Assembly: GCA_045590875.1 (NCBI GenBank)
Contig: JAZNRT010000048.1
Coordinates: 1 to 59,175 of the forward strand
Reading direction: 5' to 3'
DNA: 59,175 nucleotides
Source: Acutalibacteraceae bacterium
Lineage (GTDB): Bacteria; Bacillota; Clostridia; Oscillospirales; Acutalibacteraceae
The notes beneath the pieces were generated by a model. It ran no database searches and was not told the origin of the DNA. It was given only the letters and a program-made list of their open reading frames with translations. Shown piece after piece: positions 24,639 to 59,175 of the stretch. The stretch's first letter is position 1. Each line of letters opens with the position of its first letter. Position numbers and translations under genes: made by a program.

Positions 24639-24729
24639 GTATAAAAATGATACTTGTTCTAAGGCTGGTGGTATTGTATAATAAAGGTGTATAGGTGGCT
24701 TTATGCCAAAAATAATGGAGGAAGCATAT

Positions 24730-27000
24730 ATGAAAACACAAGCCAAAGGATTTACAGCACTGTTTTTATGCATGGCAATTTCTCTTTCCACACTCACTCT
24801 TTCGGTCTTTGCCAATACCGAAGCTGTGGAATACACAGATATCTCAACCGTAGAGCAGCTACTTAGTATAGAAGATAATTTATCGGGTAATTATCGCTTG
24901 GTAAACGATATAATATTCGGCGAAACAGATACTTTTTCTCCAATCGGAGACGGCACAGCAAAATCCGGTTGGTTTACAGGCACTCTCGACGGCAACGGTT
25001 ATACTATCAGAAATTTACATATTGCGCCCCCCGATGCCACAAGTAGCACAACCTTCGGTGGGTTGTTTGAATATGTTTACCAAGCTACAATTCAAAATCT
25101 TATAATCGAAAACGTATCTGCCACCATAGGTGATTTTCAGTATCTCAATTTAGGAGCCCTCGGCGGTACTATATCAAAAAGCACTATTGAAAACTGTTAT
25201 GTCAGCGGTAGCTTTAAGCTTACAACAGGCGGCAGCTCCGTATTTGTAGGCGGCATATGCGGCGTAGGTGCAAACACCACCATTAAAAATGTCGGCTCCG
25301 ATGTGGATTTAAGCTACAGTGACGTGGTTAATAACAACATATATGCAGGCGGTCTGTCGGGTAATTTCGACGGTCAGATAATCTCCTGCGGTAACGAGGG
25401 CAATTTTGCCGTAACGGGAACCACCAATGATTTTTCTGCAATTCTTGGCGGTATGGTAGGAATGACAGATACAAGGTCACTTCATATAGAAAACTGTATT
25501 AACAGAGGTAATATAAGTGCCGACACAAAGGCAACCGCAATTGCGGGTGGTATGGTGGGAAAAAGCTCTGTTACTACCACACTTGTAGGCAATATGAATT
25601 TTGGCACAATTTCTGCAGTATCCACCTTTGAATCAGGCTTTAACCCCGATGCTCATAAAATAGGTTCAGGTGCTATTGCCGGAATTGCCGATGCAACCTG
25701 TACCGACAACTATTATTTAAGCGGCAGTAATTCTTCTGCTTGTAGTAGCGGAAATACTACAGCAGCGGCTAAAACCTTACTGGAGCTTCGGGAAATAGCA
25801 GCAAATAATGAATGTTTTTATCTTCCCAAAAGTGCCACCGAAACCCCTTGGATAGCTGCTTGGCAGTGCTATTCTTCGGGCCACACCGAGGTTATCGACG
25901 AGGCAGTTGCCCCCGATTGCGATAGCACAGGTCTTACCGAAGGTAAACACTGCTCAGTTTGTAACGAAGTTCTTGTAGCTCAAGAAGAAGTTGCGGCACT
26001 CGGTCATACCGAGGGCGAAGCAGTAACAGAAAATGTAGTTAATGCAGACTGCGATACAGATGGCTCTTACGACACCGTCATATACTGCTCGGTATGTGAC
26101 GAAGAACTCTCAAGAGTGACCACACCTGTTGCGGCACTTGGTCATAGCTATGATGACGATTTCGATACCGATTGTAACGTTTGCGGCGAAACCCGTGAAG
26201 TTCTTATAGCAACCTTTGTTGACAAAAACGGCAACGAAATTTTCAAGGCTATCATTGGTGCCGACGGCAAGATTTCTGCCGACGATATAGCTGCCGCTGA
26301 AGCAAAGGCTCCCGTAGAGTTCGGTTACGACCGCGATGGTTGGGATAGGGATCTAGACCTTGTATACACCGAAAGCTTCACAATTAAGGCTCGGTACATC
26401 AAGAGCACCGAAACCTATACAGTTACTCTTACCGATACAAACCATAATGTTGCCACAAGTGAAATCGCATTAGATCAACGCTTCACTATTGAAGACGAGA
26501 ATGCACTTTCCTTCATCGTTAACGGTCAGGTGATCGGCGGTGCAGGCGAAGTAACACTTTACGGCTGTGGTGAACTCGAAATCGTTGCTTCTGATGAAGC
26601 TGCTCCCACAACACCTGTTGTAGCAATCCTTAAGAGCGATATCTTAAAGATGGCTGACGGCACAAATGCCCTTCGTATTTTCACAAATGTTTACAATCCT
26701 GAAGATGCCGCTATCACCGATCAGGGCGTTATCTTCATCTCCGGCACCGACTATAATAATTACGGATTTGAAAATGATGCTACTAACTTCACCAAGGATA
26801 AGATTGAGGGAGTATGGGCGGCTAACAGATATGTAATATTAAATAGCACAAAAGACGCAGACCAGATGCTTGCAACTCTCGAAGGTATTGCTAACATAAA
26901 TGGTCTCAAGCGCGTTGCTCGTGCGTACGCAGTTGTAAGTGGAGAAACAATCTACAGTGATTACGTTTCAGTTAACGATATGTACATTGCTAATAACTAA
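24730..27000 (+). CDS. secreted GLUG-motif repeat protein with Cys/His repeat modules
   Basis: Signal peptide [28 protein letters not shown]. Repeated GG(L/I/M)xG GLUG-like motifs. Three GH-x-C-x-G-x-C-x2-C modules. The ATG at 24730 lies 8 nt after GGAGGA. Confidence 0.75.
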
Positions 27001-27045
27001 GAAAAAAGCTTCCGTTTTGGGCACCCTCCGTAAGGAAGGTGCCCC

Positions 27046-27144
27046 AGTTATATTCGCCTTGACACGCGAGTGATATTGCTTCGCAGTGATATGATACTTC
27101 GTATCGTGATATTGTCCTTCGGACAGTTTAAGGGCGAATATAAT
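27046..27144 (+). repeat. internal array: 5 units of AGT(T/G)ATATT, each followed by a short GC hairpin
   Basis: 9-mers at 27046, 27069, 27085, 27106 and 27125. Closed by GGCGAATATAAT (27133-27144), which is complementary to the first unit. Confidence 0.8.
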
Positions 27145-27285
27145 ACCACTGAAACCGCAAGGTTTCAATATCACTTTTGCATGATAAGGCAAAAATAAAA
27201 CTGTGAGCCCTGTCTCGCAATATCACTATTAAAGATTGAGTTTAGATTCTTTGAGATAGGTATTATTCAAAGTATGTAACCCACT

Positions 27286-27317
27286 ATGACACTTTCAAAC
27301 TGAAAGTGTCATTTTTA
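27286..27317 (+). terminator. rho-independent terminator (plus strand) inside repeat copy 1
   Basis: 12-bp stem ATGACACTTTCA / TGAAAGTGTCAT followed by TTTTTAT. Confidence 0.6.
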
Positions 27318-27319
27318 TA

Positions 27320-27361
27320 TTAAAAAAACAAATGGAGAGCACTTCTTTACGAAGTGTCTCC
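27320..27361 (-). terminator. rho-independent terminator of the ior-paaK-ACT operon (minus strand)
   Basis: GGAGACACTTC gtaaa GAAGTGCTCTCC followed by ATTTGTTTTTTT on the minus strand. Confidence 0.65.
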
Positions 27362-27416
27362 ATTTTGACGGAAGCTTTTTTAAAAATTTCTGCTAATAAA
27401 AGTGTGTAGGTTGTTA

Positions 27417-27845
27417 TTAAAGCTTGGCAATATCGTTGCCGCTGAGCAGAGTTACACCTGCATTTTTGAGTGCTGTTTCAGCGCCCTCGGAATCGTCTAC
27501 ACGGATTACTACATATGCCTCTTTGCCTGATTTTGCAACGAAAGCGTAGAGATATTCAAGGTTAATGCCTGCATCTGACAGCACCTTAATTTCGCTTGCA
27601 AGTCCGCCGGGACGGTCGCTGGTGCAAACTGCAATAACATCTGTAACAGTGCTTATAAAACCACCCTCAGCAAGGGCAAGCGCTGCCTTTTCATTGTTAT
27701 CGGTAATCATTCTTAAAATTCCGAAATCCTTTGTATCTGCAATAGAAAGTGCGCGGATTTCGATGTGCGCCTCAGCTAGGGTGTTAAGCACCTCTACAAG
27801 GGCGCCCTTTTCGTTTTGAACAAAAACTGAAATCTGCTTAACCAT
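27417..27845 (-). CDS. ACT-domain protein (tandem ACT)
   Basis: 142 aa with two ACT-like beta-alpha-beta-beta-alpha-beta halves. AGGAGG RBS. Typical last gene of ior/paaK clusters. Confidence 0.8.
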   Translation of the reverse strand: MVKQISVFVQNEKGALVEVLNTLAEAHIEIRALSIADTKDFGILRMITDNNEKAALALAEGGFISTVTDVIAVCTSDRPGGLASEIKVLSDAGINLEYLYAFVAKSGKEAYVVIRVDDSEGAETALKNAGVTLLSGNDIAKL

Positions 27846-34334: not shown

Positions 34335-34545
34335 ATTTCCTCTAAACCGGCTACCGCAGTTCACTTTGAGGAGTTTATCATTCGGGTATTTCGACTTGAT
34401 GCTTTTGCTTTCACCTTCTCAAGATAGGCTCTCAATGGCTTGTCCCCGATTTGCGGCATCGGGCAAGAAAACAAAATATTAAACTGCATCTCACGGCGAC
34501 GGGCTCGTACAGGATTTGCACCTGTTTCCCCGAAAAGATAGACGT
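34335..34545 (-). promoter_or_regulatory. putative cobalamin (B12) riboswitch
   Basis: Minus-strand core GGGGAAACAGGTGCAAATCCTGTACGAGCCCGTCGCCGTGAG resembles the conserved GGGAA..GGTG.AAATCC...CCCGC..CTGT core. A degenerate B12-box-like AAGCCATTGAGAGCCTATC follows. The downstream genes are typical B12-regulated cargo. Confidence 0.6.
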
Positions 34546-34571
34546 TTTATGTATATTTCAACAATTGGATA

Positions 34572-50101: not shown

Positions 50102-52978
50102 TTATTTGGTTTTCTTACTTTTAACCTTAGACCAACCTGAATAAATTCTTTTGCCCTTGACGGTTTTAAAGGTGCGTATGCGAACATAGTAGGTCTTTTT
50201 CGCCTTTAATTCTTTTATGGTTTTTGATGTGGTTTTGGTTTTCTTTACCGTAATTTTTTTAGCGTTTTTAAACTTCTTAGAGGTGCTGTACTGAAGCTGA
50301 TAGCCTGAAGTATCCTTTTCCTGCTTCTTCCATTTCACCTTAATGCTTTTTGTTTTAGCAGTAAGCTTTGAAAGTGAGGTGGCTTTTGGGGTTATCTTGA
50401 ATGTTAAAACCTCTTTGCCTTTATACTTGCCTCTGAAATTCACAGTTACTTTGTATTCACCAATCTTTTTGCGCCCTGAGGAATATTTAACTGTGTAATC
50501 TGTGCCTTTAATAAGCTTTTGACCCTTTGTGTTTTTCACTGTAACGGTGGGCTTTCGTGATTTCCCGTTATAAGTGTAAGAGGTTTTTGAGAGCTTAACT
50601 GATTTTATTTTCCTTATAGTGCTGTTGGAGATGTTGCCGCATACCGAACAGGCTTTTTCTAGATTTCCTGCCGATTTCATTGTGGCTTTTTTAGTTATCT
50701 TTTCGGTGTAGGAGTGACCCAGAGCGGAGATAATCTGCTGTTTTTCTAAAACTGTGCCACAAACTCCGCAGCTTAAGCCCTCGCTTTTTCCAGGTGTTGT
50801 GCAGGTGGGCGGGGTGGTAGAAACCACAACTGCGGTGTGGGGAGTAGTTTCTTTATTACTAAGCTTTATTCCTCCACACTGATTGCAAACCGATTTGACC
50901 TGACCCTCATTTTTGCAGGTGGCATTTGTGAGTATAGTTTCGGAGAGGGTAGGGTGTGTGCAATTTTTAAAGTTAAGGTCTTCGGTAGCGCCCACAGTAA
51001 CATTAAGGGTAGTTTCCTTGCCGCCAAAGGCAATAGTAACTATTTGTTTGCCCACAGCTTGTGAATTGAAACCCTTTATCTGGAAACCGTCGGTAATAGT
51101 TTTTTTGGTGCCGTCGCTGTAAGATGCGGTGAGGGTAAGACCAACAGAGTTAAAGGCTTGCCTCACAGAATAAAGGGTAATGGGTTTGGTCGCAACAGTT
51201 ACATCAGTCACTTTAGGTGCAGTGCTTTCCCACACAGCATATAGCACACTTATACAATTTCCCTTAACGGCATTTGGATTTATGCTTGAGGAAAGCAAAT
51301 TTTTATCATCTTGGCTAAATACTGTGCCGCCTTGTGGCTTGGTGCTCCAGCCCTTAAAAGTATAGCCGTCGCGAACAAGTCCAAAGGTGGATGCATTGTT
51401 AAGTCCATTTGATTTTTTTGCACCGTATGTCCACACTTGATTGTGTTTTTTACCGTCGGCCACCTTGTAAATCATATTATTGGAAAGTGTATGCTTGTCC
51501 TTTTTGAGTGTACCGCCGTTTGCATTATAATAAACGATGAGCTTGTGTGGGGACCAAACCGGGTAGAAGGTAATGGTATCGTTTGTGGTGGCGTTAGCAA
51601 ACCAAGATTTGTTGAACGTATAGCCTATGCCGCTTTTATAAACGCTTTTCTTATAGCCAAAAAGGTTGATTTCTTCTTGGGTTTTCCAGCCAACACCTGC
51701 GCAGTACCAAGTTCTATCGGAATTTCGGTAGGCATTCCAACCACCGAAAAGATTGCCCACCTTAGTAAAGGTGTTGGGACTTAAAGTAAGGATATCGCTG
51801 TATTTGGCGGTGGTCCCCGTCATGTTGCCGATGCCACCGTTTGAGTTGTAGTTAATTTTAAGACTTAGCGCCGAAAGAGGTATCCAGGCGGCTCTGTAAT
51901 AGCCCCCTGAAACGGGGTAAAGCAGTTGTGCCGCCACCGAGTTGTGATCCACAATAAATGAAACATCACCTTGGGCGGTATAGCCGATTTCTTCTTTCAG
52001 GTCACCGCGAGCGTAGGTTTCAATAAGCCTGTCCGCCTTTATGCTAAAGGCGTTGTAATCAGGATTAAAGAAAACAGAGGTCTTAACATATCCCTGGGTG
52101 TTCTTCCCGCCTGACTGGGGATATGTAACCTTGCACCAACCATTGCTTAAAAGCTCGGTTATATAGCAAATGTCATTTCCACCGATTTTTTGCGGCTTTG
52201 CCTTTCCGCCCACCGATTCGTAGGCTACGGTGTCCTGACCCGATAGGGTGATTGCTTTTATTGAATTTGGGAAGCTCACCTCAGGCCTACCTAGGCATTC
52301 ACTGCAATTTGGTATAGTCTTGCTGTTACCTGTATAGTAATAATAACCGCAAGAGGAGCATTTGTTATACTGATTGTGTGGGTGGTCACTGTCGTAGCCC
52401 GATACATAACTGTGGTTGTGGGATTCTGCAAGGGAATAGGGGGCAATTGCAACCGAGGTAAAGGATTCCTTTAGCCTCGATTTAGTCATTGTGGCACCCC
52501 AACGGATAACACAGTTGTTCTGATAATTGCAATCGGCATAGGTTATGGTATCACCGCTTACACCGTATACAAATGCAGAGTGGCCGTTAAAATTATAACG
52601 GATTACATCGCCGGGCTTTAAAGAGGTGTCTATATAGTTTTTATCATAAGAAACATTCCATTGAATATAGGGCTCGCCGCCGTATGCGGTATATGCCAGC
52701 TGAAAAGCAAAGCCCATACATTGAATGGCATAGTTTTTGTATGTGTTGCAACCGCAGGAGCCGTTGTAGGTGCATTCGTTTCTGTGATGTGTGCAAGGGG
52801 TGGAGGTGTAGCTCTCAGAATTCCCGCCGTTCCAAAACTTTCCGTGAGGATATTTTTCCTGCATATCCGAAAGGCTCATAACCGCCGCATGTGTTTCGGT
52901 TAAAACATATGGACAAAAGGGAAGCAGAAAGGCAAAACAAAGCAAAACTGATATAATTCTTACAACTTTTTTGCTCAT
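50102..52978 (-). CDS. large secreted multidomain protein: papain-like (CHAP/NlpC-type) amidase, SH3-like domain, Listeria-Bacteroides (Flg_new) repeats, Ig-like domain, Cys/His repeat modules, Lys-rich Ig/Fn3-like C-terminus
   Basis: Signal peptide MSKKVVRIISVLLCFAFLLPF. QCMGFA...GHSAFV Cys/His pair. GWNAY / GYTFKGW / FYPVW repeats. C..C modules. A C-terminal ~200 aa very rich in Lys. The ATG at 52978 lies 7 nt after AAGGAGA. Confidence 0.8.
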   Translation of the reverse strand: MSKKVVRIISVLLCFAFLLPFCPYVLTETHAAVMSLSDMQEKYPHGKFWNGGNSESYTSTPCTHHRNECTYNGSCGCNTYKNYAIQCMGFAFQLAYTAYGGEPYIQWNVSYDKNYIDTSLKPGDVIRYNFNGHSAFVYGVSGDTITYADCNYQNNCVIRWGATMTKSRLKESFTSVAIAPYSLAESHNHSYVSGYDSDHPHNQYNKCSSCGYYYYTGNSKTIPNCSECLGRPEVSFPNSIKAITLSGQDTVAYESVGGKAKPQKIGGNDICYITELLSNGWCKVTYPQSGGKNTQGYVKTSVFFNPDYNAFSIKADRLIETYARGDLKEEIGYTAQGDVSFIVDHNSVAAQLLYPVSGGYYRAAWIPLSALSLKINYNSNGGIGNMTGTTAKYSDILTLSPNTFTKVGNLFGGWNAYRNSDRTWYCAGVGWKTQEEINLFGYKKSVYKSGIGYTFNKSWFANATTNDTITFYPVWSPHKLIVYYNANGGTLKKDKHTLSNNMIYKVADGKKHNQVWTYGAKKSNGLNNASTFGLVRDGYTFKGWSTKPQGGTVFSQDDKNLLSSSINPNAVKGNCISVLYAVWESTAPKVTDVTVATKPITLYSVRQAFNSVGLTLTASYSDGTKKTITDGFQIKGFNSQAVGKQIVTIAFGGKETTLNVTVGATEDLNFKNCTHPTLSETILTNATCKNEGQVKSVCNQCGGIKLSNKETTPHTAVVVSTTPPTCTTPGKSEGLSCGVCGTVLEKQQIISALGHSYTEKITKKATMKSAGNLEKACSVCGNISNSTIRKIKSVKLSKTSYTYNGKSRKPTVTVKNTKGQKLIKGTDYTVKYSSGRKKIGEYKVTVNFRGKYKGKEVLTFKITPKATSLSKLTAKTKSIKVKWKKQEKDTSGYQLQYSTSKKFKNAKKITVKKTKTTSKTIKELKAKKTYYVRIRTFKTVKGKRIYSGWSKVKSKKTK

Positions 52979-53028
52979 ATATATCTCCTTCAAGAGTGGC
53001 ATTAACATAATATAGTGTATACATTTTT

Positions 53029-53057: not shown

Positions 53058-53127
53058 TAAACGACAAGGCTCGTAACACAAAAAAAGAACTACCCGAAGA
53101 GGCGCACTCCGTAAGGAAGTGCGCCTC

Positions 53128-53223
53128 AGTTATATTCGCCCAAGGCGAGTTATATTGCTTCGCAGTTATATTTGGACGTTGTCCAAGTTATATTCGCTTC
53201 GCGAGTTTTATGGCGAATATAAT
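53128..53223 (+). repeat. internal array: 5 units of AGTTATATT, each followed by a short GC hairpin
   Basis: 9-mers at 53128, 53148, 53164, 53186 and 53204 (the last is degenerate). Closed by GGCGAATATAAT at 53212-53223. Confidence 0.8.
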
Positions 53224-53414
53224 ACAACTGAAACTGAAAGTTTCAATATCACTTTCCTTTTTAAAATATCTCGCCACAGGCGAGGAATTTTAAAAAGAAA
53301 ATATCACTGTGAGACCCGTCTCACAATATCACTAATATTTTTATCTCTGAGATAGGTATAAATTCAAAGTATGTAACCCACTATGACACTTTCAACTTGA
53401 AAGTGTCAATTATT

Positions 53415-53460
53415 ATGTAAAAAGAAAATTGGGAGAACACTTCTTTATAAAGTGTCTCCC
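53415..53460 (-). terminator. rho-independent terminator of the dnaK operon (minus strand), part of repeat copy 2
   Basis: GGGAGACACTT tataa AGAAGTGTTCTCCC followed by AATTTTCTTTTT on the minus strand. Confidence 0.65.
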
Positions 53461-53495
53461 AAAGAGTTTCGAGTAGTCCTATTAAAATTCACACG

Positions 53496-54641
53496 CTAGA
53501 ACAAATCCTTTAGCTTGTCGAAAAAGCTTTTCCGCTTGCCGTAGTTTTTGTCGTCGGTCTCATCGTCGAATTTTTTAAGTAGTTCCTTTTGGTCTTTGGT
53601 TAAGTTTTTAGGTACTTCCAATATGATTTTAACATACTGATCACCAAAGCCCGAATAGTTAAGCCTTTTTATGCCCTTGCCCTTAAGCTTGAATTCATCA
53701 CCGGGCTGGGTGCCCTCGTGAATAGTGAATTTAACCTTGCCGTCTAAGGTTGGCACAGTTATTTCATCGCCTAAAGCCGCTTGGGTAAAGGTAACGGGAA
53801 TTTCGCAGAAAACGTCGAAGCCGCTTCTCTCAAAGATGGCATGGGGACGAACATTTACATTAACCCTAAGGTCGCCTGCGGGACCGCCGTTTGCTCCTGC
53901 ATCACCGCCGCCGCGTATGTTGATAATCTGACCGTCATCAATTCCTGCAGGAATGTCGATTTTCCGTTCGATTGCCCTGCGAACTCTGCCCTTACCGCCA
54001 CAAGAACGGCAGGGATTGTCAATAATCTTACCCGTACCATGACAGTGGTCACAAACGCGGGAGGTTTGCATAGCGCCAAAGGGTGTCTGCTGAGTAATTC
54101 TCACCTGACCTGTGCCTCTACAGTGGCTACAGGTTTTAGGCGAGCTGCCCTTTTCGGCACCGTTTCCTCCACAGTCGGAACAGGTTTCAATTCTTGTTAC
54201 CTTTATGGTTTTTTCACAGCCCTTTGCGGCTTCCTCAAAGGAAAGATTAACAGTGGCAGAGGTGTCATTGCCTCTTCTTGGTGCGTTGGGGTTTGAACGA
54301 GCACCGCCGCCAAAACCGCCGCCAAAAAATGAGCTGAATATATCACCTATATCACCAAAATCACCGAAACCGCCAAAACCGCCGCCACCGGCACCACCTG
54401 CGCCATAGTTGGGGTCAACTCCCGCGTGGCCGAATTGGTCGTATCGGGCACGTTTGTTCTGGTCCGACAGCACCTCATATGCTTCACCTGCTTCTTTAAA
54501 GTGGGCTTCTGCTTCGGCATCTCCCGGATGCAGGTCGGGGTGATATTTTTTTGCCGCCTTACGATAGGCTTTTTTTATTTCATCTTCGCTGGCACTGCGG
54601 TCTACACCCAGCACCTCGTAGTAGTCTTTCTTGTCAGCCAA
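53496..54641 (-). CDS. dnaJ: molecular chaperone DnaJ
   Basis: J-domain with HPD, G/F-rich region, four CxxCxGxG zinc-finger repeats. Apparent TTG start after GAGGAG. Confidence 0.93.

Positions 54642-58709: not shown

Positions 58710-59175
<466 letters not shown>

Follow-up and report, generated by a model that had tools for sequence, protein, structure and literature searches.

A repeated 360-bp element, probably MITE-like and oriT-only, apparently inserted in terminator loops of an Acutalibacteraceae bacterium

What is the structured sequence that follows dnaJ in an Acutalibacteraceae bacterium? The stretch studied here, positions 1 to 59,175 of contig JAZNRT010000048.1 (assembly GCA_045590875.1; hereafter the window, 59,175 nucleotides (nt) long), contains two copies of it. 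A profile built from 31 related elements places copy 2 at 53099-53460 (E 5e-81) and copy 1 at 27020-27361 (E 2e-91); profile, Rfam and repeat searches together delimit copy 1 as 27019-27361. A preliminary description of this DNA had given copy 2 as 53101-53460, which is essentially exact, and had seen in the two copies a single structured element located each time at an operon end, a view upheld by their 81% identity and their match to the same profile. The right-hand third is the best conserved part. Copy 2 encodes no open reading frame (ORF) and is made of three modules: a hairpin at each end, an array of 9-mers corresponding to the Rfam motif Gut-1, and a block resembling an origin of transfer (oriT) of the MOBV type. 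Homologous loci outside the window number more than 150 and belong to gut and rumen Clostridia. The two copies are probably members of a family of small, non-autonomous, oriT-only mobilisable DNA elements of gut Clostridia that resemble miniature inverted-repeat transposable elements (MITEs).

The right-hand block is a predicted MOBV-type oriT on the minus strand of the window. Its core in copy 2 (53373-53408, minus strand) consists of the hairpin TGACACTTTCAAGTTGAAAGTGTCA (53408-53384) followed by TAGTGGG/TTAC, so that the minus strand reads GACACTTTCAAGTTGAAAGTGTC-ATAGTGGG/TTACATACTTT with a nick region ATAGTGGG/TTAC and a predicted nick between 53377 and 53376. The experimentally defined oriT of pMV158 reads ACTTTATGAATATAAAGT-ATAGTGTG/TTATACTTT, with its hairpin 8 nt from the nick (PMC5863519). 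In copy 2, counted from the GTC end of the stem in alignment with pMV158, the hairpin likewise lies 8 nt 5' of the predicted nick, and the nick sequence ATAGTGGG/TTAC is of the ATAGTGTG/TTAT-like kind. The corresponding hairpin of copy 1 is found at 27286-27312, with a predicted nick between 27280 and 27279 on the minus strand. The block thus shares with the MOBV1 oriT/RSA sites of pMV158 (MobM) and of Tn4451 (TnpZ-like) both the hairpin placed 8 nt 5' of the nick and the succession ATAGTGKG/TTAY then ACTTT. It differs from them in lacking an adjacent relaxase gene, in being housed in a gene-less element of 360 bp, and in the absence of the lower 'IR3' stem (CCCAC x GTGGG) of the relaxase-linked versions.

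The oriT assignment rests on this architecture and also on identity with the sequence directly upstream of the Mob_Pre relaxase genes of related elements. A 31-nt block, AAAGTATGTAACCCACTATGACACTTTCAAA, is identical in copies 1 and 2 and in locus L121, the only contig of the viral collection (IMG/VR) with an exact match. There the complement of the block precedes a Mob_Pre gene (E 5e-39) by about 75 nt, and a gene for a large serine recombinase comes next, a layout like that of a Tn4451-like mobilisable element. The 17-nt core CCCACTATGACACTTTC occurs at 59 loci of the viral collection, about 7 being expected by chance; at approximately 43 of the 59 an ORF of 400-450 amino acids (aa) starts 19-90 nt away on the other strand, and all six ORFs tested beside the core encode Mob_Pre. 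In a scan of genomes, one per species and seeded on the nick region or oriT, at least 119 loci were recovered, all in gut or rumen Clostridia, and among the matches listed the identical nick region lies beside a relaxase gene in 28 of 119 loci. Taken together, the viral and genome surveys place this sequence directly before Mob_Pre genes in more than 80 mobilisable elements. Matches to AAAGTATGTAACCCACT in viral contigs L122-L124 were dismissed as chance occurrences in coding DNA. As a side observation, dozens of the 'viral' contigs L125-L182 carry a Mob_Pre relaxase with its oriT and look like integrative mobilisable elements rather than phages.

The second line of evidence concerns where the element lies. 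Copy 2 is bracketed by the two arms of what is, by its sequence, the terminator of dnaJ: on the left an A-run (53080-53086) and the arm GAACTACCCGAA (53087-53098), which on the minus strand read TTCGGGTAGTTC and then TTTTTTT, and on the right the arm TTCGAGTAGTCC (53468-53479, minus strand), which begins 17 nt past the dnaJ stop codon at 53496. On the plus strand 10 of the 12 positions of this outer stem pair; on the minus strand all 12 do, two of them as G-U pairs peculiar to the dnaJ mRNA strand, and the stem is closed in the centroid fold of the single-stranded DNA (ssDNA). It is GC-rich and is followed by T7, as expected of an intrinsic terminator, except for the loop: in place of the usual 3-8 nt, the 'loop' of copy 2 comprises the 362-nt element and 7 residual nt, which is itself an argument for insertion. 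Copy 1 is enclosed by a split bidirectional terminator with arms AAAAAAGCTTCCGT (27002-27015) and ACGGAAGCTTTTTT (27368-27381) that pair at 14 of 14 positions, between a 765-aa gene (ending at 27000, plus strand) and an ACT-domain gene (27417-27845, minus strand).

The outer inverted repeat thus brackets each copy and differs between the copies. It had been overlooked in the preliminary description, whose 'T6-7 run' 11-14 nt after the first hairpin is explained by it as part of the host terminator. The arrangement is general: the longest perfect inverted repeat formed by the two flanks measures 9 nt or more in 28 of 35 complete copies (median 12 nt), whereas mismatched pairs of flanks, used as a control, have a median of 6 nt and reach 9 nt in 8% of cases. 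The stems of at least 7 nt (n=30) are all distinct and are usually preceded by an A-run and followed by a T-run. The element usually starts 13-30 nt past a stop codon, where it has a gene on either side (24 copies) the two are most often convergent (14 copies), and the residual loop bases beside the element amount to 4-12 nt in total and are often T-rich. A conserved interior between unrelated bracketing stems indicates insertion into pre-existing terminators and not the closing helix of one structure. There is hence a strong case, drawn from many independent bracketed copies rather than from direct sight of the event, that each copy was inserted in the loop of a different host intrinsic terminator, which for copy 2 would be that of dnaJ. 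The intact terminators implied by this model would have been AAAAAAGCTTCCGT-N(3-10)-ACGGAAGCTTTTTT for copy 1 and GGACTACTCGAA-N(3-10)-TTCGGGTAGTTC after dnaJ for copy 2. In four relatives, with DnaJ proteins 83-88% identical, dnaJ is immediately followed by a plain terminator hairpin and the element is absent.

These findings modify two earlier proposals about the surroundings. The last hairpin of the element had been taken for the terminator of the upstream operon; it is indeed followed by a T-rich run in all subfamilies and may stop read-through from dnaJ or the ACT gene, but the sequence at 53431-53460 is conserved in every context and does not belong to the dnaJ operon. The host's own dnaJ terminator is, on the pairing described above, the split outer stem, for which the last hairpin may plausibly substitute. 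A link with genes for surface proteins had also been suggested. Of ten other loci tested, eight flank unrelated housekeeping genes (those for Peptidase_S11, pseudouridine synthase, ACPS, DHDPS, IMPDH and S1, among others) and two have neighbours without a Pfam match. Other copies therefore bear out the association with terminators and not that with surface-protein genes. The common denominator of the locations is the 3' end of any gene, and the proximity to surface-protein genes in the window is coincidental. The promoter-like site described at 53057-53029 on the minus strand, beside copy 2, was recovered.

The ends of the element supply the third line of evidence. The left terminal hairpin, H1 (53099-53127, found by an inverted-repeat search), has the form GAGGCGCA-CTCC-GTAA-GGAAG-TGCGCCTC, and the right terminal hairpin, GGGAGAACACTTCTTTATAAAGTGTCTCCC, occupies 53431-53460 on the minus strand, where it is followed by the T-rich run AATTTTCTTTTT (53430-53419); the whole feature, delimited by reading, comparison and covariation, spans 53419-53460. 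In copy 1, H1 lies at 27019-27045 and the terminal hairpin at 27334-27361. The plus strand of H1, ACTCCGTAAGGAAGT, resembles the minus strand of the right hairpin (ACTTCGTAAAGAAGT in typical copies, ACTTTATAAAGAAGT in copy 2), and through this likeness in inverted orientation the ends behave as terminal inverted repeats, each of them being itself a hairpin. The lower stem of H1 covaries among the 31 elements, as does that of the right hairpin, and the right hairpin with its T-run is conserved across subfamilies. After the left hairpin the plus strand continues with AGUUAUAUU; with T-rich tracts after both end hairpins, both ends look like inward-facing terminators. Between the array and the oriT block, an AT-rich spacer contains a small palindrome, TATCTCTGAGATA (53342-53354), and a GAGATAGGT motif is retained in most copies, including variants that carry protein-coding cargo.

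The element therefore has terminal inverted repeats and, like a MITE, is small, lacks an ORF and is present in several copies in varied contexts: two in the window, two in locus L246 and at least two in several assemblies. The copies of the window are closer to elements of other species (85-87% identity) than to each other (81%). The two full elements of L246 (2350-2701 and 6027-6389) are 3.3 kb apart, and tandem or partly duplicated arrays occur in L386, where the second lies about 700 nt after the first, and in L337, L347, L370 and L373; such clusters suggest local amplification or nested insertion.

The array is composed of AGTKATATT 9-mers, four in forward and up to four in reverse orientation, with short hairpins of variable sequence between them. 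In copy 2 the forward half (53128-53222) contains four AGTTATATT 9-mers (53128, 53148, 53164 and 53186) with mini-hairpins and is closed by a covarying stem in which TTATATTCGCC (53130-53140) pairs with GGCGAATATAA (53212-53222). The reverse half (53221-53333) contains AATACAACT at about 53221 and AATATCACT at 53245, 53300 and 53325, with hairpins between them that include a long one at 53253-53301. All of these forward and reverse 9-mers, 53221 apart, agree in position with the preliminary description, and two peculiarities that it ascribed to copy 2 are real: the long hairpin is its differing central hairpin, and the extra reverse 9-mer at 53300-53308 has only a degenerate counterpart in copy 1 (AAATAAAACT). 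The 9-mers of copy 1 start at 27046, 27069, 27085 and 27105 (forward) and at 27142, 27167 and 27219 (reverse). With at most one mismatch allowed, the window contains 37 occurrences of the 9-mer where 15.6 are expected, and none of 100 shuffles reached 37. Folded as ssDNA, the minus strand of copy 2 has a free energy of -79.1 kcal/mol compared with -34.3 for shuffled sequences (z = -11.7).

The forward half corresponds to Gut-1 (RF01706), described as an orphan non-coding RNA (ncRNA) candidate of 77 nt, from the 'human gut only' and without known context or function (PMC2864571). Copy 1 matches the model at 27045-27117 with 63.6 bits and so passes the gathering score of 50, as do 10 of 17 related loci; the match of copy 2 (53127-53198, plus strand, 34.4 bits, E 5e-05) falls below it, but the three hairpins with the repeated GUGAWAU-type linker are present there according to the model alignment and the 9-mer positions. 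The model also matches the minus strand of copy 2 weakly (53241-53343, 21.1 bits), and no Rfam family other than Gut-1 matches the copy 2 region. What distinguishes the present arrangement from the published motif is that the motif makes up one half of an array that spans about 200 nt, is pseudo-symmetric and is in turn part of small cassettes. Wherever the upstream sequence was examined, a hairpin precedes Gut-1, and the first forward 9-mer (F1) always abuts it.

From its sequence properties, the array most likely acts as DNA, as dyad-symmetric sites for a sequence-specific protein displayed between DNA hairpins, and it probably does not act as RNA. This reading is based on four features. The mini-hairpins contain 365 Watson-Crick pairs, two G-T and two A-C pairs, that is, less than 1% wobble pairs on either strand; the plus and minus strands of 36 elements fold equally well; the orientation relative to flanking genes is unbiased, five copies being co-directional with the genes on both sides and four opposed to them; and on the plus strand there is no room for a promoter, which upholds the earlier remark that copy 2 has no convincing one. 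Conflicting evidence as to the strand had already been recorded, and we find that it is genuine and follows from the pseudo-symmetry of the array, with its almost purely Watson-Crick hairpins and strands that fold alike. One detail needed correction: the loops given as UUCG are in fact symmetric triloops, c-TTC-g on the plus strand and c-GAA-g on the minus strand, GCTTCGC being the reverse complement of GCGAAGC.

The principal alternative is that the element is a structured ncRNA, in which the Gut-1 RNA would extend to about 360 nt, be made as a transcript of one strand or as a read-through 3' untranslated region, and act on its neighbours or as a protein sponge, the outer stem being its closing helix and terminator. 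Weinberg et al. (2010) graded Gut-1 as a certain RNA (PMC2864571), and much of the evidence is of the kind expected of one: the gathering score is passed by copy 1 and by the ten related loci, the Rfam covariance model favours plus-strand RNA, the closing stem shows compensatory changes, as do H1 and the terminal hairpin, and loops of GNRA-like sequence, GTAA in H1 and both GCAA and GAAA in the array's reverse half, also favour RNA from the plus strand. Transcription of the array from the other side is possible, since promoter-like sites exist on the minus strand, namely TTGAAA-17-TATTAT within the array and TTGACA-18-CATAGT with a TG in the oriT block; from sites such as the latter, an antisense transcript could run to H1 and its T-run. 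The first of these sites is missing from 9-mer subfamilies II and III and was judged fortuitous. An RNA that is transcribed from the plus strand would have to do without a promoter, with F1 always directly beside a hairpin, would lie in either orientation relative to the surrounding transcription, and would almost never use wobble pairs. The outer stems, too, are unrelated between copies despite a conserved interior, unlike the closing helix of a homologous RNA, the G/T or C/A position of the 9-mers does not covary, and the intact relaxase nick region would be left unexplained. For these reasons we regard a structured ncRNA as unlikely.

A further possibility is that forward and reverse 9-mers pair with each other, in RNA or in ssDNA, to give stacked four-way junctions that are the functional unit, for example as a single-strand replication origin. 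The two kinds of 9-mer are complementary in consensus and differ in concert between subfamilies (GTGATAT/ATATCAC, GCGATAT/ATATCGC, GTGAAGTT/AACTTCAC and GTTATGAG/CTCATAAC), and one pairing, that of F1 and CGCC with GGCGAATATAA (GGCG and AATATAA), does covary. The minus strand has c-GAA-g and c-GTA-g loops, including GCGAAGC, which as a DNA mini-hairpin is unusually stable. Nevertheless, the variable position (G/T in forward, C/A in reverse 9-mers) shows no correlation under any one fixed scheme of pairing: L246 agrees with nested pairing, L255 agrees with parallel pairing, and copy 2, with T in all four forward 9-mers and C in three reverse ones, is mismatched on both strands. Fixed base-pairing between forward and reverse 9-mers was accordingly rejected, apart from the F1 exception. 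The lack of correlation argues for recognition of each 9-mer by a protein and not for maintained pairing, and concerted change is equally expected of the sites of one protein. We consider a functional junction fold of this kind decidedly unlikely.

The array is not confined to elements with an oriT. In a metagenome scan seeded on the first 9-mer, the oriT module was present in only 3 of 98 complete arrays among the matches listed, which implies that the array leads a life of its own; L234b and L215b are arrays without oriT. Among the distinct metagenome loci listed, a tRNA gene directly precedes the array in 33 of 73, with 11 amino-acid specificities, and most of these have an A5-stem-loop-stem-T5C hairpin between the tRNA and the array. 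In 22 of the 73 the array is followed by a 118-121-aa gene of PF05635, the family of the 23S rRNA intervening-sequence protein, whose -35 box starts, in the loci examined, a few nt past the last reverse 9-mer. A unit of about 620 bp, which begins with this hairpin and ends with the PF05635 gene, recurs at different tRNA loci. Arrays scoring above the Gut-1 threshold that lie after a tRNA gene and hairpin and before a PF05635 promoter are exemplified by L315:4460-5266, L307, L316, L321, L346 and L396. The Gut-1 array is thus, as judged from these arrangements, a module used by several small cassettes, of which the window has the oriT-bearing kind.

Other arrays that begin with H1 and have no MOBV oriT (L313, L314, L348, L364, L367, L397 and L416) show a different right-hand module, TTTTGTCCATAGGCACAGCGAGCTTCGGATTTTGTCACC..., which lies about 200-330 nt past the first 9-mer and ends in a degenerate inverted copy of H1; a search of viral contigs for it gave no match. 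The second recurrent right-hand module, TTGTCCATAGGCACAGCGAGC... of oriT-less arrays, which we take to resemble the R388 nick site loosely, gave no match in the viral contigs, and the lead was dropped. Loose matches to GTGAWAT-gap-GTGAWAT-gap-GTGAWAT in viral contigs L001-L120 were discarded as noise. In the metagenome locus L321 (1167-1348, minus strand), a 6S RNA gene, tRNA genes and a Gut-1 array follow one another head to tail within 460 nt.

The oriT-bearing kind is itself variable. Beyond the 28 relaxase-bearing loci, most of the genome matches listed are non-coding elements of 170-410 nt with the architecture seen in the window, but the backbone of H1 and the oriT/terminal-hairpin region can hold protein genes that replace most of the array. 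The cargo comprises a 185-aa DUF6883 protein with an 82-aa partner, toxin/immunity-like, in L277, L232 and L291, and an XRE regulator with a 162-aa membrane protein in L282 (4272-5292); in L299 the apparent cargo, directly beside the oriT module, is a 95-aa zinc-ribbon membrane protein, and no left end was found. Cargo-bearing copies of which both ends were seen (L232, L277 and L282) are likewise located between split terminator arms, and L232 and L277 are closely similar 1.2-kb versions at different loci with different outer stems.

Several observations weigh against a mobile, oriT-only element, in addition to the promoter-like sites, loops and covariance model that speak for RNA. No Mob_Pre gene is found within the 59-kb window, so that a position upstream of its own relaxase is seen only in related loci, and, among the matches listed, the relaxase-bearing elements with the identical nick come from 'Clostridium sp.' and not from the Acutalibacteraceae or Oscillospiraceae that carry the small element. 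The relaxase-bearing elements were searched for clusters of the 9-mer and had none, which gives no sign that the helper shares the binding sites. No transposase or recombinase was identified: copy 2 has no ORF, unlike an integrative mobilisable element with its own integrase, the longer same-ended elements among the loci fetched are cargo variants only, and their cargo (DUF6883, XRE and small membrane proteins) does not include recombinases. An exact empty site was not found, the DnaJ and ACT proteins of the window having no exact match on record and the closest relatives available having DnaJ proteins 83-89% identical and other terminator stems, and the copies compared show no clear target-site duplication. 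The genome survey was seeded on the oriT block and is biased by this; in the metagenome scan, seeded on the array, only 3 of the 98 arrays listed carry this oriT. Elements of different species are at most 92% identical, with no sign of very recent spread, and the plasmid collection contained no match to the element.

Some of these points would be expected if the element were a dead fossil, in which what remains of a mobilisable element (its oriT and promoter region) is joined to the array and is now neutral, immobile and tolerated in terminator loops. The window has no helper gene, sequences diverge between species by the margin just given, and decayed copies exist, among them L222 with 174 nt, the shortened L190 and L215, and the degenerate third reverse 9-mer of copy 1. 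The decay is countered by what has been retained: the hairpin with its nick region at 8 nt, the terminal hairpins with compensatory changes and the order of the parts are kept in dozens of species, the same features are present in copies found without oriT as bait (L246b and three loci of the metagenome scan), and the one backbone is found with different cargo genes that are intact. For the element to be placed so precisely and so often in terminator loops, targeting must also have been active, at least recently, and we consider a fossil very improbable. Three remaining candidates were ruled out: a group II intron, for want of a reverse transcriptase or ribozyme; a CRISPR array, as the repeats are too short and are inverted; and a riboswitch, as no other Rfam family matches the region.

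For a small, mobilisable DNA element the following sequence of events can be proposed. An enzyme supplied in trans would insert the element into terminator hairpins, the target probably being recognised as a structure in ssDNA and the end hairpins serving as recombination sites. The end hairpins with their inward T-rich tracts would then replace the disrupted termination and insulate the element. The MOBV1 relaxase of a co-resident element could nick the minus strand at the predicted site, a conjugative pore also being required, and the nicked strand would be transferred either as an excised circle or dragging the adjacent chromosome along in the manner of Hfr strains, while the array would function as a protein-binding DNA module. 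In related Oscillospiraceae, mobilisable elements of the MOBV1 type abound (PMC12084326). Transfer of the minus strand from an integrated element would run toward decreasing coordinates, and the first gene to be transferred from either copy would be that of a large secreted protein (24703-27000, plus strand, and 50102-53008, minus strand), probably by coincidence in view of the unrelated genes beside other copies.

A bolder reading joins all these parts: an undescribed class of gene-less or single-cassette mobile DNA would insert in a structure-specific manner into terminator loops and beside tRNA genes and would travel as hairpin-rich single strands by means of a borrowed MOBV relaxase, and the Gut-1 array would be a site, probably in single-stranded DNA, for a dedicated protein, with the Avd-like four-helix-bundle protein PF05635 as a candidate, and not an RNA. 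In its entirety we put this forward only tentatively, as a possibility.

The concept of integrated elements that possess only an oriT already exists (iOriT and pOriT elements, and the oriT mimics of staphylococcal plasmids; PMC11389934). Like these hitchers, the present element would have only a cis-acting oriT matching that of other elements, with relaxase and pore provided in trans; the known examples are plasmids or kb-scale islands with an integrase or replicon, whereas here the element is MITE-sized, multi-copy, devoid of an integrase and located in terminator loops (PMC11389934). MITE-like repeats such as Correia elements, REPINs, BOX and bcr1 are comparable in being small, non-coding, multi-copy, modular and hairpin-rich, in having terminal inverted repeats, and in lying between genes at gene ends, where they can affect termination; the element differs from them in that no cognate transposase or target duplication has been identified. 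We know of no repeat of the Correia, REPIN, BOX or bcr1 type that carries an oriT or lies inside the loops of unrelated intrinsic terminators. The intervening sequences of 23S rRNA are also inserted in a stable hairpin loop, closed by a stem, and may carry a PF05635 protein, but their sites are rRNA helices, and they are removed from the RNA. Group IIC introns share the use of terminator hairpins as targets; they insert after the hairpin and not in its loop, and they encode a ribozyme and reverse transcriptase, neither of which is found here. In the literature we found no description of a MITE-sized oriT element or of insertion into terminator loops.

For Gut-1, which has stood in Rfam as an orphan since 2010, the findings supply a context and a function that can be tested, and they warn that the motif may be DNA, not RNA. 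If the proposal is true, a multi-copy oriT of 360 bp would endow abundant gut Clostridia with many chromosomal origins of transfer, usable by the very common MOBV1 elements, which could mobilise adjacent genes Hfr-style. Insertion into terminator loops, combined with the element's own inward terminators, would represent a new 'safe-harbour' strategy and would imply an unknown structure-specific recombination activity. The toxin-like, regulator and membrane-protein cargo on one backbone may point to a cassette system, in spirit like integron cassettes.

Two further features of the window lie apart from the element. The hrcA-grpE-dnaK-dnaJ operon (minus strand) stands just before a plus-strand 16S rRNA gene that is cut short by the window's end, leaving its 5' part (58710-59175); the closest relatives of the operon's DnaJ (83-89% identity) are from Clostridia/Acutalibacteraceae. 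A cobalamin riboswitch (RF00174, 44 bits) is located at 34364-34553 on the minus strand.

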